From Candidatus Uhrbacteria bacterium (GTDB lineage Bacteria > Patescibacteriota > Patescibacteriia > UBA9934 > GWF2-40-263), in assembly GCA_016205975.1 (NCBI GenBank), contig JACQSK010000021.1, forward strand, positions 106,593 to 170,592: a DNA stretch of 64,000 nt, given 5' to 3'. Within the stretch, counting starts at the first letter, position 1; each line of letters begins with the position of its first letter. Below, piece after piece: positions 38,710-56,148 of the stretch. A model generated the notes under the pieces. That model was not told the DNA's origin. It made no database searches and saw nothing but the letters and a program-made list of their open reading frames with translations. The translations under genes were made by a program, and so were the position numbers.

Positions 38710-38893
38710 GATTGGTTCCGCTTGCGGGTGCTGAGACTACCACGCCAGGTGGCTATCGATCTTGTCCGTCGCTTGGAGATGGTGGTGCGGCGCGGATTCC
38801 TCGAATCGATCGGCACACCAACTGGATCTCGAGCTGTGATCCAGGCGTCGAGCGCGACGCGCGCGGAACGCTCCGCGATCTGGGCGCTGACAT

Positions 38894-39709
38894 CTACCGA
38901 CTCCGGAACACCTCCGGCGCGCTTTCGAGTTGCGCGAGGTCCAGCTCCAGGCGCGTGTCGCCCCCGTCGCAGCTCGCGCCCACGGTGAACGCGCCCCACG
39001 CGAGCAACGAGAGCGTGGCCTCGCCGTCCTCGACGGGCCGGGTCACCACCGGCGAGGGGAACGTCGGGTGGAGGTGGAACGTGACGCTGCCGGTGAGCGG
39101 GTCGCCCGGGTTCGTAGAGCACACGCGCAGGCGGACGCGGAACCAGCTCGCGCTTCCCGGCACCGCTACGACGATCGCGCACAGCCGGCGGTCGTTCGCC
39201 GCGGCCATCCCGCCCCACTTTCCCTTGTGCGGGTCCTCGTCCGCGGGGGCCGCGCCCACCGCCCGTCCCCGGTCGCCCTCCACGTCCAGGAGCATGTCCT
39301 CCTCCGCGACCGGGCGGGACCCACCGGGCCGGGGGATGTGGTCGAACACCGCGCCGGTCGCGTCCAGGTCGTCGGCGACCTCCTTTACTCGTCCACGCAC
39401 CCGCTCGATCTCCCCCCGCTGGGTTTCCAGGGCGGCCTGGAGATCCTGCATCTCGATTTTGTTGTCCCCGAACGAGAGCGACTTCACGCGGTGGAGGATG
39501 GTGACCGCGCCGGCCACGAGGAAGAAGCGCGCGGCCGTGTCGTCGATGTCCTGGCCGCCGACCAGTTGGCGGATGAGCACCGCCGCGCCGGCCAGGGCGG
39601 AGAGCGCCCCGATGGTCGCGAGGAGCCTCGCCGGGAGCCGCTCCCCGGCACCGGGGGATGGCGGCGCCGCGGGGACCTTCGCGAGCGACTCCTTCGGGCC
39701 GGCCGTCAT
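38894..39709 (-). CDS. membrane-anchored coiled-coil protein, downstream partner of the hydrolase-caspase gene
   Basis: Start overlaps the upstream stop. TM LLATIGALSALAGAAVLI. Coiled-coil IEMQDLQAALETQRGEIERVRGRVKEV. Confidence 0.45.
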   Translation of the reverse strand: MTAGPKESLAKVPAAPPSPGAGERLPARLLATIGALSALAGAAVLIRQLVGGQDIDDTAARFFLVAGAVTILHRVKSLSFGDNKIEMQDLQAALETQRGEIERVRGRVKEVADDLDATGAVFDHIPRPGGSRPVAEEDMLLDVEGDRGRAVGAAPADEDPHKGKWGGMAAANDRRLCAIVVAVPGSASWFRVRLRVCSTNPGDPLTGSVTFHLHPTFPSPVVTRPVEDGEATLSLLAWGAFTVGASCDGGDTRLELDLAQLESAPEVFRSR

Positions 39710-41475
39710 CGCCGTCCCCCGCCCGGTACCGGCTCGTCTCGCCGTGACCGTGGCCCTGCGAGCTGCGGGTGCTGGTCGTAGCCGAGCGCCGCGATCGACC
39801 TCGACGCCCGCTTCACGAGCTGGTTGAACGTGAGCGCCTCGCCCTTCGCCCGCGCCCGGCGCAGCTCGGCGACGACGCACCAGGTGAACGCGCCGTAGGC
39901 CGCGGTGCCGTTGCGGTACTCGTACGCCAGTTCCTGTTCGCGGCAGGCGTACAGCAGCAGCGGGACGTACGGCCCCTTGTGTCCGTAGGCCGTGCGCGCG
40001 TGCTCGAACTGCACCGCGGAGTCCGACCAGACCGGGAGCGCGCGCCCGAGCCGCTTCGTGGCCCCGCCCGTCCCGAGCATCTCGGCGCGGTCGGCCTTGC
40101 GCGTGACGAGCGGCTTGGCCTTCCGAGGAAGGTCGCGCTGCTTCCAGAGTCCGAGGTCCGCGTCCCACGCGAGCGCACGGTGGCGGATGTCGTCGGGGAG
40201 AGGGAGCCCGCGGGCGCGAACGCCGCCCTCGCGGGTGAGCCCGCCGGAGTGGCAGCAGTCGAAGATGGCGGTGAACTGCGTGCCGTACGGGAGCTGGGTG
40301 TACAGCTCGAAGAACTGGTCGTCGGTGAACGCCCGGTCGCGCGACCAGTCGAAGTCGTGCGGGACCAGGCATTCATCGAGCCCGTCGACCTGGTCGCCGA
40401 TCCCGTAGGTGGGGACCTGCGCCCCGTGGCCGGAGTAGAAGAAGACGCGCTGCGCCCCGTCGTCGGCGTCGTCGAGGAGCCACTCCAGCCGTTCTTGGAT
40501 CGCGCCGCAGGTCGCACGGCCGTCGAGCACCACCCGGATGTTCTCGGGGGCGAACCCCAGCTCCTGCAATGCCGCGCTCACGAGATAGGTGTCGTTCACG
40601 CACCCCTCCAGGCGCATGTCCGGCTTGGGGTAGCTGTTGATGCCGACTAGCAGCGCCCGGTGCTGGGGCGTCTTGCGCAGCGTCGCGCGAGGCGCGAGCG
40701 CCGCGGTCGCCATGGCGGACTTCGCGCCGGCGATCGCCCGCCACGCCCGCTGGCCGGTGCTTGCGTGGGAGAGGTACTGCGCCCCGTCGTGGTCGAGCGG
40801 CCCCGGCACGTCGAACCGGGTCTCCACTTCCTGCACGGGCTGGATGCGGAACCGGTCGAGCGAGGCGGTGAATGCCGCGTCCTCGGGGTTGAACAGGTGG
40901 AACCAGCCACGTGCCGTCTCCAGGCTGCGCAGTCGCCCACCGAACGTGGCGCGCACGGCGGGGTTGCCGATCTGCGAACCGAACGTGACGAGCCAGCGGT
41001 CCTTCACGAGCGACGGGTCGAGCGCGAACGTGTCGTACGCGAGGAGCGACCCGAGGCTGTGGGCGCAGACGAGCCGCGGTTGCTGAGCGCCGATTGCCGC
41101 GGCAAGGTGCTTCCTCAGCGCCGCGCGCAGCTTCTCGTCGGCCGCCCACTGCGCGACCATGCCCACCGTCCACCGGACGGCCTCGCCGACCCCGCCCCGG
41201 GCGAGCCGTTTCGCGCCGGGCGTCCCGACGAGATCGCCGACGCCATGGACAACGAGGCTCCCCATGAGCCGCGCGAACGCCTCGGCGACGAGCAGCGGGT
41301 TGATCTTCGCCTTCTCGAAGAACGAGTCGTACTCCAGGAAGGTGATGTCGCTCGGCGAGACCTGCTGGCCCCAGCGCGACAGGCCCGAGACGATCGCGGA
41401 CGTCCAGCCGGCGCGCCAGCTCGGATCGGCGTCGCCGTGGCCGATGCCGTGGATACACAGGATGGGGAAGGACAT
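39706..41475 (-). CDS. fusion protein: N-terminal alpha/beta-hydrolase (GxSxG) + C-terminal caspase-like peptidase C14 domain
   Basis: N-terminal LCIHGIGHG ... CAHSLGS (serine hydrolase nucleophile elbow). C-terminal LLVGINSYP ... FFYSGHGAQ ... FDCCHSGG (caspase His/Cys dyad). Confidence 0.6.
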   Translation of the reverse strand: MSFPILCIHGIGHGDADPSWRAGWTSAIVSGLSRWGQQVSPSDITFLEYDSFFEKAKINPLLVAEAFARLMGSLVVHGVGDLVGTPGAKRLARGGVGEAVRWTVGMVAQWAADEKLRAALRKHLAAAIGAQQPRLVCAHSLGSLLAYDTFALDPSLVKDRWLVTFGSQIGNPAVRATFGGRLRSLETARGWFHLFNPEDAAFTASLDRFRIQPVQEVETRFDVPGPLDHDGAQYLSHASTGQRAWRAIAGAKSAMATAALAPRATLRKTPQHRALLVGINSYPKPDMRLEGCVNDTYLVSAALQELGFAPENIRVVLDGRATCGAIQERLEWLLDDADDGAQRVFFYSGHGAQVPTYGIGDQVDGLDECLVPHDFDWSRDRAFTDDQFFELYTQLPYGTQFTAIFDCCHSGGLTREGGVRARGLPLPDDIRHRALAWDADLGLWKQRDLPRKAKPLVTRKADRAEMLGTGGATKRLGRALPVWSDSAVQFEHARTAYGHKGPYVPLLLYACREQELAYEYRNGTAAYGAFTWCVVAELRRARAKGEALTFNQLVKRASRSIAALGYDQHPQLAGPRSRRDEPVPGGGRR

Positions 41476-41628
41476 CGGGGCTCCGGAGCCGGAAGGTCTG
41501 CGCGACGGTAGCACGACGGCTCGTCGCCTTGGCCGGCGCTGGAGCCGCCCAGGCCCGGGGTCAGCCGCCCGGCGAAACACGGGCGGCGAAGCGCCCCTCG
41601 TGGACGCTGCCCGTGGTAGATTCGCCCG

Positions 41629-42144
41629 ATGTGGTGGTGGGCGGCCTCGGCGCTCGCGGGTGACTGCACCCGGTTCACGGAGTGCGATGAGAGCGTCGTC
41701 GGCGTGGCGGCTACGATCGGCGCGCCGACGGGTCTACGAGTCGAGTTCTTTCCGCAGCTCGAGGGAGGGCGGTGGATGCTGTCGATCGAGGGAGTCGTGC
41801 AGGGGACGGCACACGCGGTCGGCCTGGTCGGCACGATCGGTGCCGGCGTACGCGCCCACCTTGTTCCCACCGCGGGGAAGAGGGGGGCGCTGGTGCTGGC
41901 GCCGGGCCTCGGCATCCACGGGTACTTCCCAGGAGCCGATGACGGCTGCTCCGGTCTCGGGTGCCTGGACTTGACGCCGAACACGCCGCTGCTGTTCGTC
42001 TACCCGTCGATGGACATCGGCTACGCCCACGCCGGGCGGGTCGGCTTCCACCTCGGTCTCGAGCTGGGCGCCAGTGCGACCCTCCCCGAACGCGAGTTGG
42101 TGGTGTCCCCGCAGGGAGCGGTGGTGACTGGCGCGCGGTTCTGA
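41629..42144 (+). CDS. hypothetical (possibly secreted) protein
   Basis: 171-aa ORF, Gly-rich and beta-like. Confidence 0.35.
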   Translation: MWWWAASALAGDCTRFTECDESVVGVAATIGAPTGLRVEFFPQLEGGRWMLSIEGVVQGTAHAVGLVGTIGAGVRAHLVPTAGKRGALVLAPGLGIHGYFPGADDGCSGLGCLDLTPNTPLLFVYPSMDIGYAHAGRVGFHLGLELGASATLPERELVVSPQGAVVTGARF

Positions 42145-42163
42145 CGGGCGGGGGAATGTCGGT

Positions 42164-45100
42164 CTAGAACCCGCCGAAGATCACGTACACCGCACCCGCA
42201 TACGTGCCGTTCGTGCTCTCGTTCGCATTGGCGAGGAGGATATCGGGCACCCCGTCCGCATCGATGTCCGCGGCATCGCCGAGGCCCCCGGCGCCCCCGA
42301 CGGAGGCGTCGGCCTCCGTCTCCAGGAAGGTCCCGGAGAGGGGGCCGTAGAATGCGTAGGCGTTTCCCGTTGCTCCGTTGCCGGAGTTGAACAGGATGTC
42401 GGGCACGGCGTCGTCGGAGACGTCGCCCAGATGGGCATTTGCGCCCACCCCGCCGGATTCCTCGCCGTAGATGACCGCCGTGGCGGACGCGAGGGTGACG
42501 GTCGACCAGTCGGCGCGGGCGCGCCCATCGACCAGGTACACCGCCCCTCCGCCCGACGCGGCGTAGTCGACTCCCGGCAGCCCGAGCAGGATGTCGTCGT
42601 AGCCATCGCCGTTGGCATCCTCGCGGCAGTCGATGGTCATGCCGAGCCCATCGCCGTCCACGGACTGCTCGAAGATCACGTCCGCGTCCGCGTCGAGGCT
42701 CATCGACCCTGCCACCGGGCCGAATGCCAAGTACACGCGCCCTGCCGTGCCTGCGTACCAGTTGTAGGCGCCCACGAGGATGTCGTCGTAGCCGTCGCCA
42801 TCGACGTCGCCTGAGTTCGAACCTTCCATTCCCGTGAACGTGTACGCCCCCGACATCGTCGCGACCGAACCGGTGGCAAGATCTACGTCCGTGCCGACGG
42901 GGCCATCCACGAGGTAGGCGACCCAGCTCTCCTCGTTGCCAACGAGCACGTCGGCGTCACCATCACCATCCACGTCGCCGCTGCTCAGCGCCCGTTGCGA
43001 GCCGTACGTGCCCGCCCCGTCGAGAATCCACGCATCTCCCACGGCGCTGCCGGACGAGATCGGCCCGGGAAGCGCGTAAACGGCATCCACGGCGCGAACA
43101 AGAAGGTCCGCGACGCCGTCGTCTGTCACGTCGCCGATCGCGAGCGTACCCCCGATCTGTTCGTCGGTGACCGTGCCCTCGAAGCGGTACTCGGCCGTAG
43201 CAAGCGTGTCCGATGCAGACGGTGCACCGCTGTACACGTACGCCTCCCCGACCGCGTTCGTGCCAGCGCCGGGCACGCCGATCGCGACGTCGAGCACACC
43301 GTCGTCGTCGAGGTCGCCGATGGCGAGCCCGGTACCTGCATGGTCGCTGGTGTCCTCCCCGTAGATCGTCACATCTACCTGGTCGACAGAGCACCAGTCC
43401 ACGATGCCGTCGCAATCGTCGTCGACGCCGTTCAGGCAGACCTCCGCGAAGTCCGGGCTGCGCATCGCGTCCGCGTCGTCACAATCCTCGCACGCGACGC
43501 TCCCATCGCTGTCCGCGTCGGTGGTCTCGTCCGTGCCCAGCGACCCGTCGCAGTCGTTGTCCTGCGCGTCGCACACCTCGGTGGCGCCCGGGTACACGGT
43601 GCTGTCGCCGTCGTCGCAGTCGGCGACGACCTCGCAGGCCGCTGCGTCGTCGAAGTCCGAGCACTCGCACGCGAGCGCGCCGTCGCCGTCGTCGTCGACG
43701 CCCTCCCCGATCGGGTACTCCCCGTTGCAGTTGTTGTCCTCCCCGTCGCAGATCTCCTCGGCACCGGGGTGGATGGTGTCGTCCCCGTCGTCGCAGTCCT
43801 CCTCCTCGCCCGAGCCGTCGCAGAGGTAGTAGCCGTCGCCGTCCGCGTCGGTCCCGCCGTCGGAGGTGGAGCTGTTGCAGTCGTTGTCGACGCCGTCGCA
43901 CAGCTCCTCGGCTCCCGGGTACACCGCGTCGTCGGCGTCGTCGCAGTCGTTGTCGTCTGCGACGTAGCCTCCGGGGGCCTCGCACGCGGTCAGCGCCGCG
44001 CCGGCGCCGTAGCCGTCGTCGTCCGTGTCCGCGTACCAGGACGCGGCGTCCGTCGCGGAGGCCTCGTCGACCTCCCCGTCCCCGTCGTTGTCCACGCCGT
44101 CGCACTCCTCCGCGTCGAGCGCGTCGCACGTGCCGTCCCCGTCGGCGTCGGCGGTGCCCTCATCGACGTCGCCGTCCCCGTCGTTGTCCACCCCGTCGCA
44201 GTCCTCGGCGTCGTGGCAGTCGACGATCCCGTCCCCGTCGGCGTCGAGGCCCTCGTCCACCGCGTCGTCGCAGTCGTCGTCGACGTCGTTGCACGTCTCC
44301 GTGGCGTCCGGGCTCACGCCCGCGTCGGTGTCGTTGCAGTCGTCGCCGATGGAGACCTGGTCCGCGCGCGGGGTGCAGTCGACCATCGGCGTCGTCGGGT
44401 CCCCGTGGCCGTCCCCGTCGGCGTCGGTGTACCAGGTCGGCACGTCCGCGGCGTCGTCCTCGTCGACCTCCCCGTCGCAGTCGTTGTCGGTGCCGTCGCA
44501 CACTTCGGTCGCGGAGGGGTTCACCGCCGGGTCGGTGTCATCGCAGTCGTCGCCGGTCGCGCAGGTGCCGGCGAGGATGGAGCCGTCGTTGTCCTCGTCG
44601 AGGCACTCGCCCACGGTGATCGCGACCTGGTCGGAGGCGGACTCCCCGTCGCCGTCGGTCACGGAGAGGGTGAGCACGTGGTCGCCGGGGGAGAGCGCGA
44701 CGTAGTCGGTCGTCTCGCCCGACTCGGTCGCGAGCCCGGACAGCACCACGCCGTCGAGGCTGCTCGTCCACTCCACGGCGAGCTGGTCGAGGAGCGTCTC
44801 CTCGTCGAAGACATGCCCGTACAGCCAGGTGAGCTCGTCCTCGGGGAGCGCGTCGGTCGAGGACGGGCGCACGATCGTGGAGGTCGGGGCGTGGTTGGCG
44901 ACGCAGGCGAACGACACGGATGCATCCGCGAAGAGGGCATCCGCGTCGGTGACGCGCAGGGTGACCTCGTAGGCGCCTTCGTAGGCCGGAGTCCACGATG
45001 CCGCGACGACGCCCGAAGCGTCGGGCCCGGACACGTCGAGCGACTCCTCGCGGTCCGCATCCACGGCGTACACGCTCCACGTGACGATCAGCGCGTCGTT

Positions 45101-45271
45101 CACGGTTCGACCGTCGCTGTCGGAGACGAGCCCGGAGAGCGTCAGCTCGCGCCCAACCAGGCACCCGCCGCCCGAGTCCGTGATCGCGGCCTCGGGGCCT
45201 TTCAGGTAAACGGAGAGACCGGCGTCGCTGCAAGCAGTGAGCACGAGCATCGGGGAGAGTCGGCGAAGCAT
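42164..45271 (-). CDS. large lipoprotein (1035 aa) with FG-GAP/VCBS-like repeats and multiple 'putative metal-binding motif' repeats
   Basis: Lipobox LVLTAC. More than 8 DCDDxD...CDGxDNDCDG repeats. FG-GAP-like D.DGDG...G segments. The antisense ORFs are Arg-rich junk. Confidence 0.65.
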   Translation of the reverse strand: MLRRLSPMLVLTACSDAGLSVYLKGPEAAITDSGGGCLVGRELTLSGLVSDSDGRTVNDALIVTWSVYAVDADREESLDVSGPDASGVVAASWTPAYEGAYEVTLRVTDADALFADASVSFACVANHAPTSTIVRPSSTDALPEDELTWLYGHVFDEETLLDQLAVEWTSSLDGVVLSGLATESGETTDYVALSPGDHVLTLSVTDGDGESASDQVAITVGECLDEDNDGSILAGTCATGDDCDDTDPAVNPSATEVCDGTDNDCDGEVDEDDAADVPTWYTDADGDGHGDPTTPMVDCTPRADQVSIGDDCNDTDAGVSPDATETCNDVDDDCDDAVDEGLDADGDGIVDCHDAEDCDGVDNDGDGDVDEGTADADGDGTCDALDAEECDGVDNDGDGEVDEASATDAASWYADTDDDGYGAGAALTACEAPGGYVADDNDCDDADDAVYPGAEELCDGVDNDCNSSTSDGGTDADGDGYYLCDGSGEEEDCDDGDDTIHPGAEEICDGEDNNCNGEYPIGEGVDDDGDGALACECSDFDDAAACEVVADCDDGDSTVYPGATEVCDAQDNDCDGSLGTDETTDADSDGSVACEDCDDADAMRSPDFAEVCLNGVDDDCDGIVDWCSVDQVDVTIYGEDTSDHAGTGLAIGDLDDDGVLDVAIGVPGAGTNAVGEAYVYSGAPSASDTLATAEYRFEGTVTDEQIGGTLAIGDVTDDGVADLLVRAVDAVYALPGPISSGSAVGDAWILDGAGTYGSQRALSSGDVDGDGDADVLVGNEESWVAYLVDGPVGTDVDLATGSVATMSGAYTFTGMEGSNSGDVDGDGYDDILVGAYNWYAGTAGRVYLAFGPVAGSMSLDADADVIFEQSVDGDGLGMTIDCREDANGDGYDDILLGLPGVDYAASGGGAVYLVDGRARADWSTVTLASATAVIYGEESGGVGANAHLGDVSDDAVPDILFNSGNGATGNAYAFYGPLSGTFLETEADASVGGAGGLGDAADIDADGVPDILLANANESTNGTYAGAVYVIFGGF

Positions 45272-45473
45272 GCGGGTTCCGCGGAGGAGCGCGATGCTAC
45301 ACCCGCGCGGGCTCCGACGTCTTCGCGAGCGCCACGAGCATGTCCGTGAAGACGGCGAGGAGCGGTTCCGCGAGCGCTCCCCGCGCGGGTCTCGGCCGCC
45401 AGGAGGCGAGGAGCGCGAAGGCCGGGGCGGTAGGCGCGGGGAGTGGCGCGCTCGCTCGTTCCACCAGCTCGCG

Positions 45474-45761
45474 TCACTCCTCGTCGGTGATCTTGTCGAG
45501 GAGCTTCACGAGCAGGTAGGCCAACCCGCCGACCGCCGCGGCGCCAACCAGGACGGCGATCACCGCCTTCGCCGTCGATGGGTCCTTGGCGAGCTTCTCG
45601 CGCAGCCCGTTCAGGACCGCCTCGGCCGCCCCGGTGGGCCGGGCGATCCCGGCTTCCCAGCGGGTCACGGTCCGGGCGTCGACGCCGACGAGTCGTGCGA
45701 AGCTGGCCACGTCGAGGTCGAGGTGCTGCCGGAGATCACGGACGTCCTGCGCGTTCCACAT
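45474..45761 (-). CDS. XRE-type HTH regulator with C-terminal TM anchor
   Basis: DVASFARLVGVDARTVTRWEAG is an HTH. C-terminal AVIAVLVGAAAVGGLAYLLV is a TM helix. Confidence 0.5.
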   Translation of the reverse strand: MWNAQDVRDLRQHLDLDVASFARLVGVDARTVTRWEAGIARPTGAAEAVLNGLREKLAKDPSTAKAVIAVLVGAAAVGGLAYLLVKLLDKITDEE

Positions 45762-45881
45762 GCGCCGATTCGCTCCTTGAAACCTTGTAGCACGCAGTCG
45801 GTCAGCGCCGTGACCGTCATCTGTCGCTGTTCCGTAATCCACAATACAGACACGGTCGAGGCCGAGGTGTAGCGTCCACGC

Positions 45882-46160
45882 ATGAGTTCCCGCTGGCACA
45901 CCCCCGCTCTCGCCTGGCCTCGCGGCCAGGTCCTCGACCTCGTTCGCTCTCTTCCTACCGGGCAGGGCCGCCTCCACTACCAGGAGTGGCCGGGCGGGCG
46001 GGGCGAGACCCACCGGGACCGGTTCGACCCCGAGCGCGGTCCCGCCCAGGCGGTGCTGCACGTCCTGCTCGAGACGCCGATCCTCGTCATCCTCGCCGCC
46101 CTCGGCGCCCTCGGGTTCGCCGGGTACGGCGTGGTTCGCTACCTCCGGGGTGCGCGGTGA
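45882..46160 (+). CDS. small membrane protein
   Basis: C-terminal TM helix. Stop overlaps the next GTG start. Confidence 0.3.
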   Translation: MSSRWHTPALAWPRGQVLDLVRSLPTGQGRLHYQEWPGGRGETHRDRFDPERGPAQAVLHVLLETPILVILAALGALGFAGYGVVRYLRGAR

Positions 46161-46600
46161 ACCGCATCCACCCGTCGCGTCTCCTGGCATCGACGGTGAT
46201 CGGAGTCCCAGCAGAGGTGGGCGGCGGCCTGCTCACGGTGGAGCACGTGGGGGTGGTGGCGTCCCTGCAGGACCAGCAGGGCCTGCCCTTCGTGTACAAC
46301 GCCTCGAAGCGCACCGGGAGGATCATGCTCGACTCGTGGGCCGAGTTCACACAGCGGCGGGAAGGCCGGGTGCTCGACGTCCGGGGCGCCCTCGATGCCG
46401 ACGAGGTCCTGCGCCGTGCGCACTCGCGCCTCGGAGAGCGCTGGAACCTCGTCTTCTCGAACTGCGAGCACTACGTGCGCTGGTGCCACGACCTCGACGA
46501 GGAGAGCCCGCAGCTGCAGAAGGGCCTGGTGGTCGCGGGCGGGCTCGTGGCTCTCGGCGGACTCGTCATCGCCGCCATCGCGACCGCGGACGAGGGGTAG
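46157..46600 (+). CDS. NC-domain (LRAT/NlpC-P60 superfamily) protein with C-terminal TM
   Basis: NCEHYVRWCH resembles the NCEHF motif of LRAT-like NC domains. C-terminal TM GLVVAGGLVALGGLVIAAIA. Confidence 0.45.
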   Translation: MNRIHPSRLLASTVIGVPAEVGGGLLTVEHVGVVASLQDQQGLPFVYNASKRTGRIMLDSWAEFTQRREGRVLDVRGALDADEVLRRAHSRLGERWNLVFSNCEHYVRWCHDLDEESPQLQKGLVVAGGLVALGGLVIAAIATADEG

Positions 46601-46606
46601 CCTCAA

Positions 46607-46803
46607 CGGGGTGGGGCCCGATCGCCTTCTGGTCCGCAACCAGAAGGTCGAGCGCCAGCCAGACAGTCTGGCAACGGGGTGCAAAACGGTGCGTTTTTGG
46701 GCAAAACCGTGCAGGGTATGATCCAAAAAATACAGGTACTTGGCTAATATTATTACATTTCGGGACCAGAAGGTCGTGGGTTCGAATCCCGCCACCCCGA
46801 CCA
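46607..46803 (+). tRNA. split / disrupted tRNA-like locus (3' T-arm+acceptor+CCA at ~46765-46803; candidate 5' half at ~46607-46650)
   Basis: GGUCGUGGGUUCGAAUCCCGCCACCCCGACCA is a canonical T-arm plus acceptor plus CCA. CGGGGUG at 46607 pairs 7/7 with CACCCCG. A 7-bp stem / 7-nt loop hairpin (CUUCUGG-UCCGCAA-CCAGAAG) lies between. An ~115-bp AT-rich insert is flanked by a 12-nt direct repeat accagaaggtcg. Coordinates +/-2. Confidence 0.35.
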
Positions 46804-47551
46804 TCGAAAAGGAAAGGCCGGACGAGGAGAATATCCAGTCCGGTCTTTTTGTTTCTTGCGACGCGAAGGACGACTGTCTGGCGCGCCGGTCTTGCGGGCG
46901 ATGCCCAATCGCGTCGATCAGCCCAGTAGCCAGCCACAATCTGCGTGACGGCGCCGCCGGTCCTCACTCGCGAGGATCGCGTCGACCTCGAGACCGAGCT
47001 GGATCCGCGCACGGACCTCGCCGTCGCGCTGGTAGATGGCGTCCGTGGCCTGGCTCTCGGCGGTGTCGCAGCGACCGCATCGATGCGGAAGGAGCGTCGA
47101 CGAGCCGTCCGGCCAGAGCCAGATATGGCGAGCCTCGTGCGAAATCGAGATTGCCGTCTCGAGAACCCCGTGTTGCTCAGGCGGAACCGCTAGAATCGCG
47201 ACGCGATGGAGACGCTGAGTGATGCATGCCAGGGCGCCGGGGCCGCACGCCGTCGGCGAAAAGGCGATCGTGAGAACCTTCCTTCGGACCGCAGCGTGCT
47301 CCTCGGGCACGTAGTGCTGCAACAGCCCGAGCGCCGTGCGAATGACGTGTACCCCCACGGGCGTGAAGCCCACCAGAGGAATCCCGCGGAACGCTGCCCG
47401 AGGGTAACGGGGTGCGACGGCCGCGTGCATGAGACCTCCGCCCGCAGCTTACACGCCTGGGCGCGCGTTCGGGATCCATGCGCGAGGCCGCTCCGATCGG
47501 AGCGGCCTGCCGGTCCACTGGATCCAGCTCGACAACGAAGAAACCGCTCGC

Positions 47552-48751
47552 CTATCGAGGCGAGCGGTGATTTGCCGAACGCGAGATCCCCGCCTTCGCC
47601 ATCACCTCCGCCTTGTGGGCGTCGGTGGTGTGCGCGTAGATCTCGTCCAGCATGCGCCCCTCGGTCCAGCCGCCGAGCTCCATGAGCGTGCGCCGATCGA
47701 CACCGGCGATCGCGAGCCGCGTCGCCCAGGTGTGGCGGAGACCGTGCGGGTGCATCGGGGGGAGGCCCGCGCGCTTGCAGGCGCGGCGCAGCGCGATGCC
47801 GAAGTCCTGGCGGGGCCGCGTGGGCGCGGTCGGGGAGGGGAAGACCCACCCGTGGGTAGGAGCGCCGAGTGCCACGTGACGGCGCCTGAGCTCGTCGGCG
47901 AGCTCGGGCGTCATCGGGATGGCGCGGTCATGCCGGGTTTTCACCTGGAACCGGATCTCCGGCTTCGCCCGGACCAGCATCGTGCCGTGCGGACCGACGT
48001 CCCACAGCACGTCTTCCCAGCCGCGCGAGAGGATCTCTCCCTTGCGCATGCCGAGGTTCAACGCCATCAGCACCGCGAGGTACGTGAGCGGGTCGCGCGG
48101 GATCGGGGGCTTCCCTCGCGTGACGACGTGAGGCTGTTCGCGCAGCGGCCCGACGGCGTCCAGGAGTCGTTCGCACTCCTCCGTGGAGAAGAAGCGATGA
48201 GCCCGACGATCGTTGTTCTTGATCCTTGGCATCTTGGGCAGGTGCGAGAGCACGCCGCTGTCGACCGCGTGGACGAGCGCGCCGCGAAGCCAGGCCAGCT
48301 CGATGATGATCGTCTTGCTCTTGCGCCCAAGAGCCCGCCGGGCGGTGACGTACCCGTCGATCGCGACGTAGTCGAGCGCGGAGAGCACGGTGTCGCCCAG
48401 CACCGGCTTCAACGCGTTCGCCGAGGTCTGCGCGCTCGTCGCGGTCTTCGGCGCCTTGTCGCGCCGGACCACCGGCAGGTAGACCTCGTCGAGGTAGCGC
48501 GCGAGCGTGTAGCCCGCGGGCTCAGCCCTCGTCGAGGAGCCACGCTCGGTACGCGGCGGCTCCACGGACTTCCCGGTCACGAGTTTCCCCTCGAACACCG
48601 TGAGCGCGTCCTTCGCCGCGGTCCTCGGGATGAACCCGAGCCCCCGGGTGCGGGTCTTGCCCGTTCCCGGGTCGCGCCACTGGATCGCGAAGTAGGGTTC
48701 CGTCTTGCCGCTGGCGCGGTTCACGCGCTTCACCTCGGTCAGCCATGCCAT
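47552..48751 (-). CDS. int: phage-type tyrosine integrase
   Basis: N-terminal arm-binding-like MAWLTEVKRVNRASGKTEPYFAIQWRDPGTGKTRTRG. C-terminal HGLRHTWATRLAIAGV...LGGWTEGRMLDEIYAHT. Lies next to the tRNA-like site. Confidence 0.7.
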   Translation of the reverse strand: MAWLTEVKRVNRASGKTEPYFAIQWRDPGTGKTRTRGLGFIPRTAAKDALTVFEGKLVTGKSVEPPRTERGSSTRAEPAGYTLARYLDEVYLPVVRRDKAPKTATSAQTSANALKPVLGDTVLSALDYVAIDGYVTARRALGRKSKTIIIELAWLRGALVHAVDSGVLSHLPKMPRIKNNDRRAHRFFSTEECERLLDAVGPLREQPHVVTRGKPPIPRDPLTYLAVLMALNLGMRKGEILSRGWEDVLWDVGPHGTMLVRAKPEIRFQVKTRHDRAIPMTPELADELRRRHVALGAPTHGWVFPSPTAPTRPRQDFGIALRRACKRAGLPPMHPHGLRHTWATRLAIAGVDRRTLMELGGWTEGRMLDEIYAHTTDAHKAEVMAKAGISRSANHRSPR

Positions 48752-49211
48752 CGTCTCTCTCCTTCCCGGCCGCGAGCACCGCGACCAGTCGTTCCCGGTG
48801 AATGCGCCACGCCCGGCCCGCCCGGACGGCGGCGCCGTCGAGCTGCCCCTCGGCGAGCAGCCGGCGGAGCAGCCGCTCCGACACCTGGAGGTGCGCGGCC
48901 GCCTCCTCCACGCTGAGCCAGTCGGACCGGCTCTCCCCGGGAGCGTACTGCGCGGACGGTGGAGCGGGGGAGGGGGGCGAGCGCTCCGCCGGCGACCCAC
49001 CGGTCGCTCCCAGGGTCGCGAGCACGTCCCCCCACCGGTAGACGGTAGACCCCGCGATCTCCCCGGCGGGAGCGACCGTCGCGACCAGCCACGCCTGTGC
49101 GCCGGGGCCGGGGCACGGGAGCGCCTCGGCCGCCTCCTGCGCGGACAGGAGCGACGTGGGCGCGAGCGACGCGCGCCACATCCGTCGCTGGAACGCGGAG
49201 AGCGCGCTCAT
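48752..49211 (-). CDS. excisionase/HTH-like DNA-binding protein (boundaries uncertain; frame runs on into the integrase gene)
   Basis: WLSVEEAAAHLQVSERLLRRLLAEGQLDGAAVRAGRAWRIHRERL is an Xis/MerR-like HTH just upstream of int. The ORF has no stop until 48522. Confidence 0.3.
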
Positions 49212-51171: not shown

Positions 51172-52128
51172 TCATGGCCGTTCCCCGGCCCTGAAAGACC
51201 CTTCCTGCACGCTCCCAGGATCCGCACCTGCACGAGATCCTGGACCCACCAGGCCGTTCCCACCGTGGGAACGGTCCGTCGGAACGGTTTCCACGAGGCA
51301 AGACGGCGCAAGGCGCGCGCGCTCGGTGCCGTCCTGGGTGACGACCCTCGGGGTGAGCCAGGCGGTCGGCGCGAGGATGTCCCGGTCGGTCAGCTCGCTG
51401 GCCACGGCGAAGGAGACGAGCCCCTCGGGAAGGCCCGCCTCCCAGGCCGCGAGCGCAAGGCGATTGCGCCTCCGGGCGGTGGGGACGGTGACGGCGACGC
51501 GCCAGTTCGAGGTACCCAGGAGCGGCGCGCCCGCGCTCCGGAGCGCGGCGTACGCGAGCGCCTTGTGCGCGAGCCAGCTCGGGGACTCGGTGCCGAGGTC
51601 CACTTCGAAGGCGACGGCGACCTGGCCGGCCCCCGCGGAGAGCAGGGCGACCGCGTCGGGCACGAGCCGAGCGTTCGGCAGCGCGCGCCGGAGTTCCCCC
51701 TCGAACAGGAAGCGTGCGAGCCGCCAGGCGCGCGAGCGACCGCACGCGACCGAGAGCGCGACGTAGAGGTCGACCTGCCCGTCGTGGTGGGCGAGGTTCA
51801 CGCGCTCGACCCCGTCGCGCACGCGGTAGTCCCCGGCCTCGCCGCCGAGGGCCGCCGCCAAGACCGGCCGCGCCGCGGGCGCGAGCGTGACGCGGTTGGG
51901 CCCGTTCAATCCCTCGGGGAGGTGCACGGTCACGAGCCCCAGGTCGCGCAGGACGCGCAGGCGCCGACGCGCCATGGGCACGCTCATCTGCACGCCGCGC
52001 GCGACCTGGTCGATGGTGACCGGCTGCGCGCGCTCGACGAGCGTGAGCACGAGGGTGTCGCGCACGGTCCGGCGCGCCCCGCCCGGGTCGCGACGCGCGG
52101 TGCGGCGGCTCGCCTCAGCGGGCATCAT
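51172..52128 (-). CDS. replication-relaxation (Replic_Relax) family protein
   Basis: N-terminal winged HTH (TLVLTLVERAQPVTIDQVARGV ... RRLRVLRDLGLV). Overall similarity to mobile-element replication-relaxation proteins, assessed from memory. Confidence 0.5.
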   Translation of the reverse strand: MMPAEASRRTARRDPGGARRTVRDTLVLTLVERAQPVTIDQVARGVQMSVPMARRRLRVLRDLGLVTVHLPEGLNGPNRVTLAPAARPVLAAALGGEAGDYRVRDGVERVNLAHHDGQVDLYVALSVACGRSRAWRLARFLFEGELRRALPNARLVPDAVALLSAGAGQVAVAFEVDLGTESPSWLAHKALAYAALRSAGAPLLGTSNWRVAVTVPTARRRNRLALAAWEAGLPEGLVSFAVASELTDRDILAPTAWLTPRVVTQDGTERARLAPSCLVETVPTDRSHGGNGLVGPGSRAGADPGSVQEGSFRAGERP

Positions 52129-52471
52129 CGCTCCCGAGGAGCTCGAAGACCGGGTTGTCGAGGGCGAGCCCGCACGGGCAGGTCACGTAGGCGGCGACGG
52201 CTCCGCACCGGGGGCAGGGACCCCACCCGGAGCCGAGGTAGGCATAGCCGCAGGCGCCGCACGTCCAGGCCGCGCCGGGGCCGAGTACGACGACGTGCCC
52301 GCGCGGGCAGCGCGCCTCGGGGGTGGAGAGCGACCGGGCCACGCGCCACGACCGCGCGAACATGACGATGGCGTCGACGAGGAGCGTGACCGGCAGCGCG
52401 GCAAGCACAAGCGCACTGAGCGCCAGGAGGACCCACCAGGGCGCGCGCACCCCGGCGAGGGCCGCGAGCAT
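52115..52471 (-). CDS. small membrane protein with C-terminal zinc-ribbon (CPRGH..CGACG..CPRCG..CPCG)
   Basis: TM helix WWVLLALSALVLAALPVTLLV then four Cys pairs. Confidence 0.4.
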   Translation of the reverse strand: MLAALAGVRAPWWVLLALSALVLAALPVTLLVDAIVMFARSWRVARSLSTPEARCPRGHVVVLGPGAAWTCGACGYAYLGSGWGPCPRCGAVAAYVTCPCGLALDNPVFELLGSDDAR

Positions 52472-52479
52472 CCCCCCGG

Positions 52480-53958
52480 TCACGGCAGCTCCAGGGCCGG
52501 CCGGCGCGAGGGACCCCGGCGTGCGCCGCTTCGCGCGGGGGCGGAGGGCCAGGGAATCGTGTTGTCTGCGACGGGAACCGCTGGCGCGGGGGGTGACGAG
52601 GTCGAGCCGTCGAACGCCTCGAGATCCTGCGCCCGCCGACCCAGCCGGCCGAGGCGGTAGCGTTCGCGCAGCTCCGCGGGGACGCGCGCGGCTTCCCGCA
52701 CCACGGCCGCGAGCGGGAGCGTACCGGTCACGAGGACCTGGCTCGTGCCGTTCACGAGGTCCGCGTAGAGCGCGGTCTGCCGGGGCAGCGCGCGCAGCCT
52801 TCGCTCCCACCGGGCGCGCGCGTCGGCGGGCGAGAGGAGCCGGTCGGGCACCTCGGGGTCCACCATCCGGGAGAGCGACTCCGGGAGCACGTGGGAGAGG
52901 AGCCGCACGTCCTCCTGCCGAGGCCGGAACGCGGTCCAGGTCGCCACGTTGACGAGCAGCGCGTCCACCAGTGCCGGGTTGCGCAGGGCACCCAGGGACT
53001 GGGTCGCCAGTTCCCAGCCCACGCCCTGCTCGCGGGAGAGCTGGAGCGCGCGCTCCAGGTCGATGCCGCTCCCCTCCGCCAGTACGTGGAACTCGTCGAG
53101 GTACACGGTGACGGGCACGTCCCGGTCCGGCCGGCTCATGACCGCCGCCAAGAGCAGCATGAGGAGAAGCGAGCCCACCATGCTGGGCAGGCCCGGGAGC
53201 CCCATCGGCGCGCCGCCCAGGTCCAGCACCGTGAGCCGGGAGCCGAGGAGCGCCTCGCCGGCGAGGCAGCCCCGGGCGTTGAACATCGCGCGCATGTCGG
53301 AGAGCGCGAGCACGTGCCGATCCAGGCGGGCCGCCAGCGCCAAGGCACTCGCCGCGGGCTCGGAGTCGAACTCGACGGACCAGTACTGGCGATCCACCGG
53401 GTCATCGATGCGCGAGACCACGGCGCGGCGGAACGTCTCGTCGGTGAGCAAGCGATGGAGCTCGACGAGGCTCCGGCTCACGCGCAGGCCGCGCATGAGC
53501 ATCCGGGACATCCGGGGGCCGAACGCCTCCCCGGCCATCTTGCCCAGGATGTCGGCGACCAGAGCCGCGCGCTCGTCGCGGGGAATCCCGGGGACCTCCG
53601 AGCAGAAGTTCAAGGGCACGGCCACGCCCTTGAAGGGCGCGAACACGGTGACGTCCGTGGGCGAGATGCCCCAGCGCGGGCCGAAGACCGGCAGCCAGTG
53701 GGCGTAGAGGTCCTCCGCGTCGTGCCCCTTGGCCGCGCCCATGATGACGACGCGCTCCCCCGCGCGCAGGCGTTGCAGGGCCTGCCCCTTCTGGTCCTGG
53801 GACTTCCCGACCCCGGTGGGACCGGTGACGAGCGCGTGCGCTCCTCTCCGGGTGGTCTCCCACAGGACCCGCCGCCCGCCCGGGGTCGAGATCCAGCCGC
53901 GCGCGCGACGGCGCGAACCGGCGCGGGCGGGCGCGAGGGGATCGCGCTCACCGGCCAT
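52480..53958 (-). CDS. P-loop ATPase of the conjugative coupling / FtsK-HerA type
   Basis: Walker A VTGPTGVGKS. Walker B-like VTVYLDEFHVL. Size and context match TraD/VirD4/TraG-like or FtsK-like DNA translocases. Confidence 0.55.
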   Translation of the reverse strand: MAGERDPLAPARAGSRRRARGWISTPGGRRVLWETTRRGAHALVTGPTGVGKSQDQKGQALQRLRAGERVVIMGAAKGHDAEDLYAHWLPVFGPRWGISPTDVTVFAPFKGVAVPLNFCSEVPGIPRDERAALVADILGKMAGEAFGPRMSRMLMRGLRVSRSLVELHRLLTDETFRRAVVSRIDDPVDRQYWSVEFDSEPAASALALAARLDRHVLALSDMRAMFNARGCLAGEALLGSRLTVLDLGGAPMGLPGLPSMVGSLLLMLLLAAVMSRPDRDVPVTVYLDEFHVLAEGSGIDLERALQLSREQGVGWELATQSLGALRNPALVDALLVNVATWTAFRPRQEDVRLLSHVLPESLSRMVDPEVPDRLLSPADARARWERRLRALPRQTALYADLVNGTSQVLVTGTLPLAAVVREAARVPAELRERYRLGRLGRRAQDLEAFDGSTSSPPAPAVPVADNTIPWPSAPARSGARRGPSRRPALELP

Positions 53959-54541
53959 CGTCGTCGTCCCCTTCGCCGAGCAGGTGGAAGTCGTCGTCGT
54001 CGCCTCCCGCGCGCGGCGCCTCGCCGGCGGCCTCGTCCATGGCGGGCTCGTCGTCCCCGGGCTCGACGACCCGGGCGCGGCGACGGGCGGTGGGACGCGG
54101 CGCCGGCCGCGGGGAAGGCAGCGCGGCGCGCGCCTTGGCCGCGACGAGGAGCACCGCGGCGGCGGCGAGCATGAGCCCGGCGAGCATGGCGCAGGTCTCG
54201 GCGTCGTAGAGCACCCCGTCGAGACCCGTGTCCGCGGACGGAGCGCCGACGCGGACGCCCCCGAGGCGCGCGCGCACGCCCGCGAGCGCAGAGATGGCGA
54301 GGGGCCAGCCCCCGGCGAAGAGCGCGAGCCCGATCGCCCACGGGAGGATGCGCCCGGAAAGCTGGGTCGCGCCCACCATCCAGGTGACGCACAGCCCGAG
54401 CACGGCGAGCACGAGCAGGCCCGCGGCCAGGTGATGGAGCGGCACGGCGAACAGCGCCGCGCCGACGGCGAGCACGACGAGCACCGCCACTCCGGCGCGG
54501 CCGGCGCGATCGTGCTGGCGCAGCGGGCGGGGCGTTGTCAC
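53948..54541 (-). CDS. membrane protein (4 TM) with acidic C-terminal tail
   Basis: GTG start overlapping the upstream stop. TM helices. Tail DDDDFHLLGEGDDDDGR. Confidence 0.35.
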   Translation of the reverse strand: MTTPRPLRQHDRAGRAGVAVLVVLAVGAALFAVPLHHLAAGLLVLAVLGLCVTWMVGATQLSGRILPWAIGLALFAGGWPLAISALAGVRARLGGVRVGAPSADTGLDGVLYDAETCAMLAGLMLAAAAVLLVAAKARAALPSPRPAPRPTARRRARVVEPGDDEPAMDEAAGEAPRAGGDDDDFHLLGEGDDDDGR

Positions 54542-54897
54542 GGCCACGGCTCCGGGCACTCGAGCATGCGGCGGTATGCCCACGGAGTGTCGGCGGACGC
54601 GCAGATCTCCTCCTTGTCCAGGCCGGGGTTGCGCTCGCGCTCCGCCGCGACCGCTCGTCGCGCCGCGCGCTCCGCGATGGCCTCGACTTCCTCCACCGAG
54701 GGCCCGGGGACGTAGGACACGACCGTCGGCGCGGGCGGGTCCGCCGCCTTGGCGCGCGCCACGACGACGGATCCGGCCTGTCCGGGCGCGGCCTCCCGCG
54801 CACAACCCGTTCGCACGAGGAGTATGCCCGCGATGCCGGCGGCGATCGCGCCCAGGGAGAGGAGGGTGAGGGCGTCAACGAGACGGCGAAGGTCCAT
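54538..54897 (-). CDS. small TM protein
   Basis: MDLRRLVDALTLLSLGAIAAGIAGILLV. Translationally coupled to its neighbours. Confidence 0.35.
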   Translation of the reverse strand: MDLRRLVDALTLLSLGAIAAGIAGILLVRTGCAREAAPGQAGSVVVARAKAADPPAPTVVSYVPGPSVEEVEAIAERAARRAVAAERERNPGLDKEEICASADTPWAYRRMLECPEPWP

Positions 54898-55504
54898 GGT
54901 GGCCTCCGGGGGAGCGAGGAAGCACGAAGAACGGGACGGGGGCGTCGAGCGCGGAGAAACCGTCGGACTCGACGGGCTGGAGCACGCCGGAGCGGGGGCC
55001 GAGGTACGCCCCCGTGCCCTGGCCGATGGGCAGGCTGGGGTCGATGACAACTCCTACGGAGCTGGCTGCGGGGAACGTGGCCTGGGTCGCCTCGTCGGTA
55101 CGGGAGAAGCGGGTGCCGTAGCCAGGGTGGGTGTGCCACCAGCCGACGACCTCGGCGATGGGCCAGCCCCACCGGAGATCCTCCATGAGCGCGGCCATCT
55201 CCTCGACGCCCGCGAAGACGTGGGCGTGGCCGGCGTCGGCGCGCACGGCGCGCACCGCGCCGGTGACCAGGGTGTAGGGGCCGTCTGCGTCCTCGCACGC
55301 CCGCCCGGCGAGGAGTCCCATCGTCTCGCGCGGCACGGCCGCCCGCGCCCAGGCGACCAGGTCGTCCAGGACGGCCTCCGACAGGTAGACGGCGACTCCC
55401 AGCGCGTCGCCGAACCGCGACCAGCCGGGCTCCTCCGGGGCAGGCGCGGGCCGGTAGAGAGGAACGCATTCGCGCACCCCGCGGACCACGAGGCGGGTGC
55501 TCAT
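54875..55504 (-). CDS. JAB/MPN (JAMM) metallopeptidase-domain protein
   Basis: WWHTHPGYGTRFSRTDE matches H-x-H-x7-S-x2-D. Upstream Glu (RETMGLLAG). Start overlaps the E2 stop (ATGA). Confidence 0.6.
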   Translation of the reverse strand: MSTRLVVRGVRECVPLYRPAPAPEEPGWSRFGDALGVAVYLSEAVLDDLVAWARAAVPRETMGLLAGRACEDADGPYTLVTGAVRAVRADAGHAHVFAGVEEMAALMEDLRWGWPIAEVVGWWHTHPGYGTRFSRTDEATQATFPAASSVGVVIDPSLPIGQGTGAYLGPRSGVLQPVESDGFSALDAPVPFFVLPRSPGGHHGPSPSR

Positions 55505-56148
55505 GCGCGCCCCCGGACGCGCAGGCGCGGCGAGGGGGTGGGCGGCCAGGGCGAGAGCACCCGCAGCGCGGGCCGCGACCGGGCCACGCCGTGAGTGAAC
55601 TCGACCGGCATCGCCGGGTAGACGAGGTCGCGGTGCAAGGAGTGCCCGCGCAGCGTCTCCTGCCAGTAGCGGATGGCGTCGGGCTGGTAGCCCCAGTCGC
55701 TGTCCGAGTACGGCTCGTCGAAGTTGAGGATGCGCGCCACCTGCACGAGCAGGTGGGCAAGCAGGACCTGCCCGCCGGCGTCGCCCCAGTCCGAGCCGAT
55801 GCACACCACCCCCGAGGCCGGCTGGACACGGTGGTTCCACGGCAAGGGCGGCAGGACGGTGACCGCGGGGGGCGTGAACGGGTAGTTGCCGCCCGCGAGC
55901 AGGTCGAAGGCGACCACCGTCGCCGCCTGGTACCGGCCGGGCCCCGCGAGCGTCCGGAAGTCGTACCGTGCCAAGACGTAGGGGGGCGCGGCCCCGGGCG
56001 TGCCGGGAGCGACGGGATCGCGTGCCGAGAGCAGGGCCGGGATGCTCGCGAACCCTGCGACCTGCAACCACGGGGCGGCGAGCCGCGCCACGACCTCGAA
56101 GTCGAAGCGCAGCCGGCGCTCCCGCTCTCCTGGCGCGAGGCGTCGCAT
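55501..56148 (-). CDS. E2-like (UBC-fold) ubiquitin-conjugating enzyme homologue
   Basis: PLPWNHRVQPASGVVCIGSDWG resembles the UBC active-site HPN(I/V)xxxGxICL stretch. Start overlaps the Ubl stop (TGATG). Confidence 0.5.
   Translation of the reverse strand: MRRLAPGERERRLRFDFEVVARLAAPWLQVAGFASIPALLSARDPVAPGTPGAAPPYVLARYDFRTLAGPGRYQAATVVAFDLLAGGNYPFTPPAVTVLPPLPWNHRVQPASGVVCIGSDWGDAGGQVLLAHLLVQVARILNFDEPYSDSDWGYQPDAIRYWQETLRGHSLHRDLVYPAMPVEFTHGVARSRPALRVLSPWPPTPSPRLRVRGRA

Follow-up and report, generated by a model that had tools for sequence, protein, structure and literature searches.

The 64,000-nt stretch analysed here (contig JACQSK010000021.1, Candidatus Uhrbacteria bacterium), referred to as the window and used as the frame for all coordinates, contains between 46607 and 49211 the 3' part of a proline tRNA gene, a terminator-like hairpin, several short repeats, the gene for a tyrosine integrase (int) and an excisionase-like open reading frame (ORF), xis, which runs into int out of frame. 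These features and the adjoining genes are listed in Table 1. They are read as the recombination module of an element resembling the integrative and conjugative elements of actinomycetes (AICEs), with an attachment (att) site of the order P-core-P', a relic of the 5' part of a tRNA-Pro gene, and a xis/int overlap which appears to be under selection; the probability of this reading as a whole is put at roughly 0.7.

Table 1. Features of the att site, the recombination genes and the adjoining backbone genes (window coordinates)
Feature	Position	Strand	Remarks
Piece A, putative degraded relic of the 5' two-thirds of tRNA-Pro(CGG)	46607-46650	+	Acceptor strand CGGGGTG
Perfect 9-bp hairpin in piece A, CCTTCTGGT-CCGCA-ACCAGAAGG	46625-46647	+	46625-46633 pairs with 46639-46647
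Direct repeat ACCAGAAGGTCG, copies 1 and 2	46639-46650; 46765-46776	+	tRNA positions 38-49; 114 nt in between
P arm of the att site (the AT-rich insert of the original prediction)	46651-46758	+	Homology to L008 and L009
Two overlapping arm-type integrase sites, CTGTCTGGCT (-) and CAGTCTGGCA (+)	46657-46673	both	Inverted and direct pair; predicted
GTGCA-type direct repeats, GGGTGCAAAAC / GGTGCG / AACCGTGCA	46676-46713	+	Spacing 11 and 20 nt
AT-rich spacer, from the accessory sites to the core	46714-46757	+	32% GC
Core, element-borne copy of tRNA-Pro(CGG) 32-76	46759-46803	+	T arm, acceptor strand, discriminator A, CCA
Intrinsic-terminator-like hairpin followed by a T run	46806-46856	+	Directly 3' of CCA; fold -27.1 kcal/mol
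P' arm-type sites, CTGTCTGGCG and degenerate CGGTCTTGCG	46874-46883; 46887-46896	+	Putative
ORF between att site and int, 170 aa	46918-47430	-	Probably cargo; no family match
Tyrosine integrase, int, 399 aa	47552-48751	-	PF00589
Dual-coding stretch, int codons 1-77 and frame -1 xis tail ending in AAAYRAWLLDEG	48522-48751	-	230 nt
Excisionase-family ORF, xis, 229 aa	48522-49211	-	HTH_17 at residues 98-148; PF12728 and TIGR01764, both above cut-off
Replic_Relax protein	51172-52125	-	Element backbone
ORF between the Replic_Relax and FtsK/DUF87-like genes, 122 aa	within 51172-53958	-	
FtsK/DUF87-like protein, 492 aa	52480-53958	-	

The sequence at 46759-46803 reads TTCGGGA CCAGA AGGTC GTGGG TTCGAAT CCCGC CACCCCG A CCA and is identical to positions 32-76 of tRNA-Pro(CGG), from the anticodon loop TTCGGGA to the CCA at 46801-46803. 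This assignment follows from the 31-mer TTCGGGACCAGAAGGTCGTGGGTTCGAATCC of the block, for which exact matches were found in 11 metagenome contigs; ARAGORN called an intact tRNA-Pro(cgg) over it in 10 of them, the anticodon stem having TCTGG for its 5' strand, and the 11th (L077) ends inside the tRNA. The original prediction, made from the letters of the window, had placed a tRNA 3' end here and proposed an att site built on it; both proposals hold, with the start corrected from about 46765 to 46759 and the end at 46803. No other part of the site is tRNA-exact. The same 45-nt block, with one mismatch and lacking a 5' half, occurs in the closest relative, L006 (72% integrase identity), and no match to it was found in IMG/VR.

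The terminator-like hairpin downstream of the core was not picked up by a consensus scanner; its position is kept in the related loci L006, L007, L010 and L089. Between the terminator and the arm repeats a motif TGCGA(T/C)G was noted in the window (46856-46866), L006, L007 and L089, with the near variant GGCGATG in L010. The core is flanked on both sides by putative sites which are read as arm-type integrase sites. Matches to CTGTCTGGCA with at most one mismatch number six in the 64 kb, and three of these lie within 230 nt of the core, where about 0.013 would be expected. The decamer is repeated beside the tRNA in L006, L007, L010 and L089, variants of it are found in L008, L009, L011, L014, L016 and L017, and the form common to the family is CTGTCnnGCA.

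The two copies of the 12-bp direct repeat do flank a distinct segment, as had been predicted. Its length is 114 nt (about 115 bp in the prediction) and its GC content 48% against 67.5% for the window, so that the description as AT-rich applies in full only to a 44-nt core with 32% GC. The whole stretch could be aligned with the DNA to the left of the tRNA fragment in L008, which carries tRNA-Pro(TGG), and in L009, which carries tRNA-Thr and in which the att module is inverted relative to int; a 16-nt block, GGGTGCAAAACGGTGC, is common to the stretch and L009. Because it is homologous to the att arms of relatives with other tRNA fragments and holds arm-type sites, we read it as element DNA, a P arm, and not as tRNA, intron or transposon. 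The GTGCA-type repeats within it are kept in L008 and L009, and in a looser form in L006; they are presumably the binding sites of the excisionase-like protein. A further direct repeat, the 10-mer CAACGGGGTG at 46604 and 46672, had been missed by the original prediction. The layout of the site is P arm, core, P' arm and then the integrase gene, without a functional tRNA. Contrary to what had been stated, the tRNA end is not immediately followed by the integrase, since the terminator, the arm-type sites and the 170-aa ORF occupy the interval between CCA and int.

Upstream of the P arm, piece A (46607-46650) reads CGGGGTG GGGCCCGATCGCCT TCTGG TCCGCAA CCAGA AGGTCG. In terms of a tRNA this is an acceptor strand, a D region shortened to 14 nt, an anticodon stem TCTGG/CCAGA around an altered loop TCCGCAA, and the variable loop AGGTC plus G; the loop deviates from the tRNA at three of its seven positions. 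The acceptor strand (CGGGGTG, 46607-46613) is fully complementary to CACCCCG at 46793-46799, as the prediction had claimed, and the hairpin it described is also present, with a stem of 9 bp instead of 7. Alignment scores ranged from 10.5 to 18 against positions 1-50 of tRNA-Pro(CGG) and from 7.5 to 16.5 for an inverted copy of the 3' half, and piece A fits the former, with a 5- to 6-nt deletion in the D arm, slightly better. We read piece A as a relic of the chromosomal half of attB, that is, of the 5' part of the target tRNA. The 12-bp repeat is a segment of the tRNA (positions 38-49) of which piece A and the core each contain a copy, and no target-site duplication. A further copy of piece A was not found in Joint Genome Institute (JGI) metagenome contigs. 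Decayed sites exist elsewhere in the family, L089 having retained only the last 7 nt of the tRNA, CCGACCA.

The sequence of the site is identical across contigs assembled independently from seven sequencing runs. Contig breaks near the site (the start of L004 at 46673 and the end of L070 at 46700, overlapping by 28 nt, and a pair from another run overlapping by 6 nt) were considered as a sign of graph branching; they were judged to be coverage breaks and were given no weight.

About 70 homologues of the integrase were identified, nearly all of them in metagenomes or metagenome-assembled genomes (MAGs) labelled Myxococcota or Pseudomonadota; the exact integrase carries the label Candidatus Uhrbacteria in the database. 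Sixteen genomic loci were fetched at an integrase identity of at least 37%, and others were added through exact look-ups. In several of these an intact tRNA gene lies downstream of, and convergent with, int, at a distance of 150-1900 nt in L010/L064, L014, L017, L019 and L020 and of about 5 kb in L016; the tRNA is tRNA-Pro in L010/L064, L014, L016, L017 and L020 and tRNA-Trp in L019. Such loci are classical attL sites. In every relative beside an intact tRNA the arm repeats sit between the tRNA terminator and int, and the order is that of the window: tRNA end, terminator, then two to four direct decamer repeats CTGTCnnGCA. In L064 the far side of the tRNA consists of housekeeping DNA, and no attR was found within 10 kb upstream of int in this classically integrated locus. 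Contigs L011, L103, L104 and L105 end inside the tRNA, and a circularity check of L088 and L089 revealed no terminal overlap. Among 50,697 phage and 72,556 plasmid records no close integrase was found (at most 33% identity), the matches in IMG/VR were distant only, and the excisionase-like protein had no match in phages. In L014, three copies of a repeat of about 70 nt resembling repetitive extragenic palindromic elements (...CCGTGCGCAAC...TTGCGCACGC...) lie at 8870-9150 (-), upstream of the intact tRNA-Pro.

The AlphaFold2 (AF2) model of the integrase (predicted local distance difference test score, pLDDT, 88.5) consists of an N-terminal domain of three strands and a helix, a linker at residues 61-81 which is disordered, and domains for core binding and catalysis; the Foldseek matches of this model were the Tn1549 integrase and full-length lambda integrase. 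The excisionase-like protein comprises a conserved N-terminal domain, the helix-turn-helix (HTH) domain HTH_17, and a tail which begins at about residue 149 and whose coding sequence lies within int from residue 154; the start of the ORF is confirmed by alignment with the homologues P0075 and P0076. Residues 1 to about 70 (LSAFQRRMWRASL...YRWGDV; within window 48752-49211) are strongly conserved in these two proteins and are not recognised by Pfam, and in a low-confidence model this part forms a small helix/strand domain that may be a second winged-helix unit. Pfam likewise gave no hits for the tail or for the N-terminal domain of the integrase. The Replic_Relax gene, the 122-aa ORF and the FtsK/DUF87-like gene are all kept upstream of xis-int in relatives, based on tblastn comparison of called proteins (tblastx of the flanks was discarded as GC-rich noise). 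The 492-aa protein had no Pfam hit itself, and its homologues gave weak DUF87 or faint TrwB_AAD_bind hits only.

Based on these features, the locus would be the recombination module of an AICE-like integrative element of a high-GC, Myxococcota-like bacterium, and its att site, though somewhat scrambled, is an ordinary attachment site in tDNA. The integrase family would target tRNA genes, mostly tRNA-Pro, with an identity block starting in the anticodon loop, and the last 45 nt of tRNA-Pro(CGG) carried by the element, together with the terminator, would rebuild the tRNA upon integration. The integrase side would provide the P' arm-type sites and the other side the P arm with its arm sites, GTGCA repeats and AT-rich spacer. 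The upstream acceptor strand and hairpin would be the decayed 5' part of the target tRNA, with the P arm now lying between it and the core. Two successive or tandem integrations followed by the loss of most of the left copy would be the most likely history; they would leave tRNA(1-49) joined to the P arm and so give rise to the 12-bp repeat. The left side of L006 carries different repeats, as a hybrid or tandem junction would. Of the characteristics of a lambda-type att site, a tyrosine integrase with an arm-binding N-domain adjoining the site and a tRNA 3' identity block were found, and flanking arm repeats were found at the sequence level.

Several observations weigh against this reading. 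A second att copy (a displaced tRNA fragment) was found neither in the window nor in the 5.9 kb beyond it that are covered by L084 (to about 69.9 kb). The original prediction had named the lack of a second copy anywhere in the replicon as an argument against itself, and within the span covered this argument stands. An integrated element would have a regenerated tRNA at one of its ends and a displaced fragment at the other; neither was found within about 69.9 kb. The 46 kb to the left of the site contain no related integrase, and therefore a tandem arrangement followed by deletion needs a large or lost left element as well as an unseen right end. Piece A has perfect stems, changed loops and a short D region, which is unlike neutral decay; read as the 3' half in inverted copy, it aligns nearly as well; and part of the repeat CAACGGGGTG in its "acceptor" recurs in the P arm, the GGGTG there forming part of a motif that is conserved in L009. 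Finally, the arrangement P-core-P' also occurs inside the large contigs L008 (219 kb) and L009 (64 kb), which fits an unrecombined attP at least as well.

An unrecombined attP is the strongest rival, and we regard it as unlikely although a serious contender. It would make the locus an intact xis-int-attP module on a larger replicon (a megaplasmid, a large integrative and conjugative element or a composite island), with piece A an unrelated scar or an att-derived mosaic. In its favour, the arm sites on the two sides of the core are of the same type, and in L009 the same layout is kept with the module inverted. In the window, L008 and L009 alike the P-side flanks consist of accessory and defence genes. 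The absence of an attR up to 69.9 kb would also be accounted for, as would the far end of the conserved backbone, which seemingly ends near 67 kb without a P arm. Moreover, every contig bearing the LRAT-like gene of the left flank shows the same junction, with no empty site or alternative junction. Against it speaks piece A, with a tRNA-Pro-specific acceptor, both strands of the anticodon stem and the variable loop precisely where the chromosomal half of attB would be expected; in addition, the left-flank genes have no homologues in the related elements, and signalling genes (GGDEF/EAL, PilZ) lie to the left of the site. The combination of intact stems and altered loops in piece A is explained by neither history.

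The second part of the preferred reading concerns the overlap of xis and int. The xis ORF lies in frame -1 relative to int, and its stop is located 230 nt after the int ATG, 76 codons into int. The original prediction had noted that the HTH ORF runs about 230 nt into int without a stop and had left a choice between a frameshift and an unusual overlap; the run-on is confirmed, and the evidence favours a real overlap. The sequence is identical in contigs from the seven runs, so that an assembly frameshift can be dismissed. For the comparison across the family the sample comprised the window and 19 relatives with 37-72% integrase identity. In all 20 loci frame -1 is open for 227-257 nt into int, whereas frame -2 stops anywhere between 1 and 253 nt. 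The stop of xis always falls at int codons 75-85 and is TGA in 16 of the 19 loci listed. In the int model it lies in the low-confidence linker, just before the conserved PTLxxYLD, and in L008 and L011 at the junction of linker and next domain. The tails can be aligned across the loci and end in a conserved motif, AAxFRAxL. In every locus the Shine-Dalgarno sequence of int is inside the xis ORF.

The null expectation was obtained from synonymous-codon shuffles using each gene's own codon usage. Frame -1 was open for at least 227 nt in 4-70% of the trials with single genes, while the joint probability that it is open for at least 227 nt in 18 of 18 relatives was 10^-11.7, and 10^-8 with 13 well-separated relatives; the joint probability that every stop falls within 227-257 was 10^-24.7. 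Across the family the frame is kept open beyond the expectation from codon usage. Among pairs with at most 62% integrase identity, the fraction of identical 4-fold sites was 0.508 in the overlap compared to 0.40-0.42 elsewhere, an excess that is modest and comes from pairs which are not independent. Codon identity peaks at int codons 52-76, under the tail motif, and third-position entropy in the overlap is lowered relative to positions 1 and 2; these values point to an excess of synonymous-site conservation of int within the overlap. A comparison of alternative-frame identity with synonymous shuffles was dropped in favour of the 4-fold sites, as it is confounded by relatedness (both frames lay above the null in all regions).

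The overlap is neither a sequencing error nor a one-off and, to judge from these patterns, selection maintains it across the family. It has to be considered on the other side that no single locus is significant alone (P between 0.04 and 0.7), that the loci are related, and that the AF2 model of the tail is of low confidence and was built from a three-sequence alignment. In that model the excisionase-like protein has two small domains, a stretch that is disordered and a helix at its end. In the proposed scheme xis would read 76 codons into int in the -1 frame, across the arm-binding domain, and end in the disordered linker; we infer its translation into a disordered spacer followed by a short conserved helix, and a role of the tail in the interplay of Xis and Int. 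It is conceivable, with the odds somewhat against it, that this dual coding over 76-85 codons hard-wires the direction of recombination, either because the AAxFRAxL helix, which follows the spacer and coincides with the tolerant linker of the integrase, docks on Int in the manner of the lambda Xis tail, or because ribosomes crossing the Shine-Dalgarno sequence and start of int set the Int:Xis ratio, or both. If so, the excisionase and the integrase could be neither separated nor allowed to drift apart.

The opposite view, that the run-on is a byproduct (a frame open by chance in GC-rich DNA, or an assembly frameshift) and that the protein effectively ends after the HTH domain, is improbable. 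GC content at third codon positions (GC3) is near 0.9 (0.92 in the non-overlapping part of xis), at which single shuffled genes often keep the frame open, as the percentages above show. The tail is moreover of low complexity, rich in R, G, E, D and P, and poorly modelled by AF2, and gene callers skip the gene: 2 homologues were found among 5.8 billion database proteins, and Logan gene calls have a spurious ORF on the opposite strand in its place. It would, however, leave unexplained why all 20 loci are open at a joint probability of 10^-8 to 10^-12, why the stops are confined to a 30-nt zone in the integrase linker, why the C-terminal motif is conserved, why synonymous-site conservation is strongest at int codons 52-76, and why seven runs agree.

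Far less probable still is that the overlap serves a programmed +1 frameshift leading to a Xis-Int fusion protein. This idea draws on P0054, a 545-aa protein encoded by a single ORF of a 3962-nt European Nucleotide Archive (ENA) contig, in which HTH_17 and the integrase are joined, with the frame switch from xis to int near int residue 45. This is one contig of 4 kb in which an indel is likely, and neither the xis stop nor the rest of the overlap has a conserved slippery, prfB-like or stop-context motif. Conservation of the stop and of the C-terminal motif also speaks for translation of the tail right to its end. The switch in P0054 would drop most of the arm-binding domain, and the protein may be a natural fusion or the result of an indel.

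The weakest reading, already contradicted, is a tRNA or tRNA-like gene split by a mobile insertion of about 115 bp or an intron, with a 12-bp target duplication: the direct repeats are exact, removal of one repeat and the insert (46651-46776) gives a 71-nt ARAGORN "tRNA-Ala(cgc)", and a 124-nt intron is reported when the intron option is combined with lowered thresholds, but the insert has no other copy in the window, is homologous to the att arms of relatives with other tRNA fragments and holds integrase arm sites, Rfam reports no intron, tRNA or tmRNA at gathering score, and the rebuilt tRNA has a 3-bp D stem, no conserved D-loop residues, C33 and an Ala anticodon with a Pro-type acceptor. 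The small insertion and the intron that had been suggested for the segment are accordingly both given up.

Other candidates were rejected as well. With default settings ARAGORN found no tRNA or tmRNA at the site, and Rfam reported nothing at gathering score in the whole window and no tRNA at the site at E <= 10; with neither call, and only positions 32-76 exact, a canonical tRNA gene was discarded. An intact tRNA with other boundaries, which would have told against the original prediction, was thus not found by either program. An intron-containing tRNA was discarded in the absence of an Rfam intron family, the ARAGORN model being forced, with a 3-bp D stem, and the "intron" homologous to att arms. 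The tmRNA alignment of Rfam scored 20.6 bits against a gathering threshold of 47 and covered the acceptor and T arm only; ARAGORN found no tmRNA, and no tag ORF or pseudoknots were present. In this alignment it is the second CGGGGTG that pairs with the 3' acceptor strand and the T arm. Since that CGGGGTG sits in a conserved P-arm motif, in which L009 has ATGGGTG, the tmRNA-like pairing is largely coincidental. A miniature inverted-repeat transposable element or insertion sequence with target duplication was rejected because no 14-mer or longer word of the segment recurs in the window and the segment is positionally conserved in related att sites.

Among known systems, pSAM2 also integrates at a tRNA-Pro gene. 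AICEs have the layout rep-xis-int-tra and integrate into the 3' part of tRNA genes (PMC2440964), and the element described here shares with them the rep-xis-int module with a tyrosine integrase and the tRNA 3' identity segment which keeps the tRNA intact (PMC2440964), as well as one sole candidate transfer protein, FtsK-like, and a length of about 10-25 kb. Of the AICE characteristics, int, xis and Replic_Relax are present, the FtsK-like assignment depends on weak or faint hits of homologues, and an actinomycete host was not found, the relatives being labelled as Myxococcota or Pseudomonadota MAGs. It further differs from AICEs in that its replication gene is of the Replic_Relax type, its excisionase-like protein of 229 aa has an extra N-terminal domain and an int overlap of about 230 nt, and its integrase is at most 33% identical to those in phage and plasmid records.

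With lambda the element has in common an integrase composed of an N-terminal arm-binding domain, linker, core-binding and catalytic domains, predicted arm-type sites on both sides of the core, and accessory direct repeats in the P arm by an AT-rich stretch. In lambda, the C-terminal tail of Xis contacts the N-domain of Int, and xis and int overlap slightly. Here the core is a tRNA 3' fragment, the protein resembling a recombination directionality factor belongs to the HTH_17 family, the sites are predicted from sequence, and the overlap is about ten times longer and spans the whole arm-binding domain.

The nearest precedent for the xis/int overlap is uoi/int of Mx8, a phage of a myxobacterial host, in which uoi (the excisionase gene) and int overlap extensively out of frame. 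In its GenBank annotation uoi occupies 4991-5215 and int, in its long form, begins at 5085, an overlap of 131 nt. In Mx8 int starts inside the 74-aa uoi and its short form overlaps by 8 nt, whereas here a long xis tail extends over a fixed int start. The attP of Mx8 is located inside int (PMC6070905). No sequence similarity was detectable between the Mx8 proteins and those described here. The conserved dual-coding overlap of 230-257 nt with the arm-binding domain is thus a notable variant of an already known arrangement.

Tandem and decayed islands at tDNAs are common. Islands in tRNA and tmRNA genes follow the principle of a regenerated target and a displaced fragment (PMC4383910). The element resembles such Islander-type islands in its tRNA 3' fragment and in the integrase beside tDNA; it is unlike them in that the target is not regenerated, no displaced fragment was found to about 69.9 kb, and the relic of the tRNA 5' part is separated from the core by a P arm. 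A likeness to tmRNA and intron-containing tRNA genes lies in the capacity of the acceptor stem and T arm to pair across a long insert, whereas the score is below threshold and a tag reading frame, pseudoknots and an intron family are all lacking.

For the annotation of tRNA genes and islands, the att site serves as a caution, as a tRNA fragment carried by an element can, together with its arms and a remnant of the target, mimic a "split tRNA". Of the two results the overlap has the greater value: an entire family of integrative elements from uncultured high-GC bacteria would encode an excisionase-like protein partly inside int. Because standard gene callers drop the xis gene, annotations systematically lack the recombination directionality factors of such elements. 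These elements are also a clean natural example of long conserved dual coding that could be tested genetically.

The surroundings of the module are heterogeneous. GC content is about 61% at 1-21000, about 72% at 21000-59000 and about 64% at 60000-64000, and the window gives the impression of a patchwork of islands and not of a uniform chromosome. The left flank (37912-46600) is of accessory or defence type, with genes for DUF6338, prokaryotic YEATS, caspase-family, HTH_3 and LRAT-like proteins and a 1035-aa MopE/FG-GAP lipoprotein. On the other side, a cargo block at 54538-58466 (-) encodes a ThiF-like E1, a JAB deubiquitinase-like protein and small ORFs; it shows weak similarity to anti-phage proteins of the cap2/3 type and is kept in L103. 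A second, unrelated tyrosine integrase (24323-25528, -; PF00589 and PF02899) lies at the GC step at 21-26 kb with no adjoining tRNA or tRNA fragment. In the 61% GC block (1-21 kb), ARAGORN called a 90-nt "tRNA-Arg(gcg)" at 18100-18189 (-), which Rfam did not see at any threshold; it has a good T arm and acceptor, TCCA, a terminator directly after it and an odd body, and may be a second aberrant or orphan tRNA-like end.

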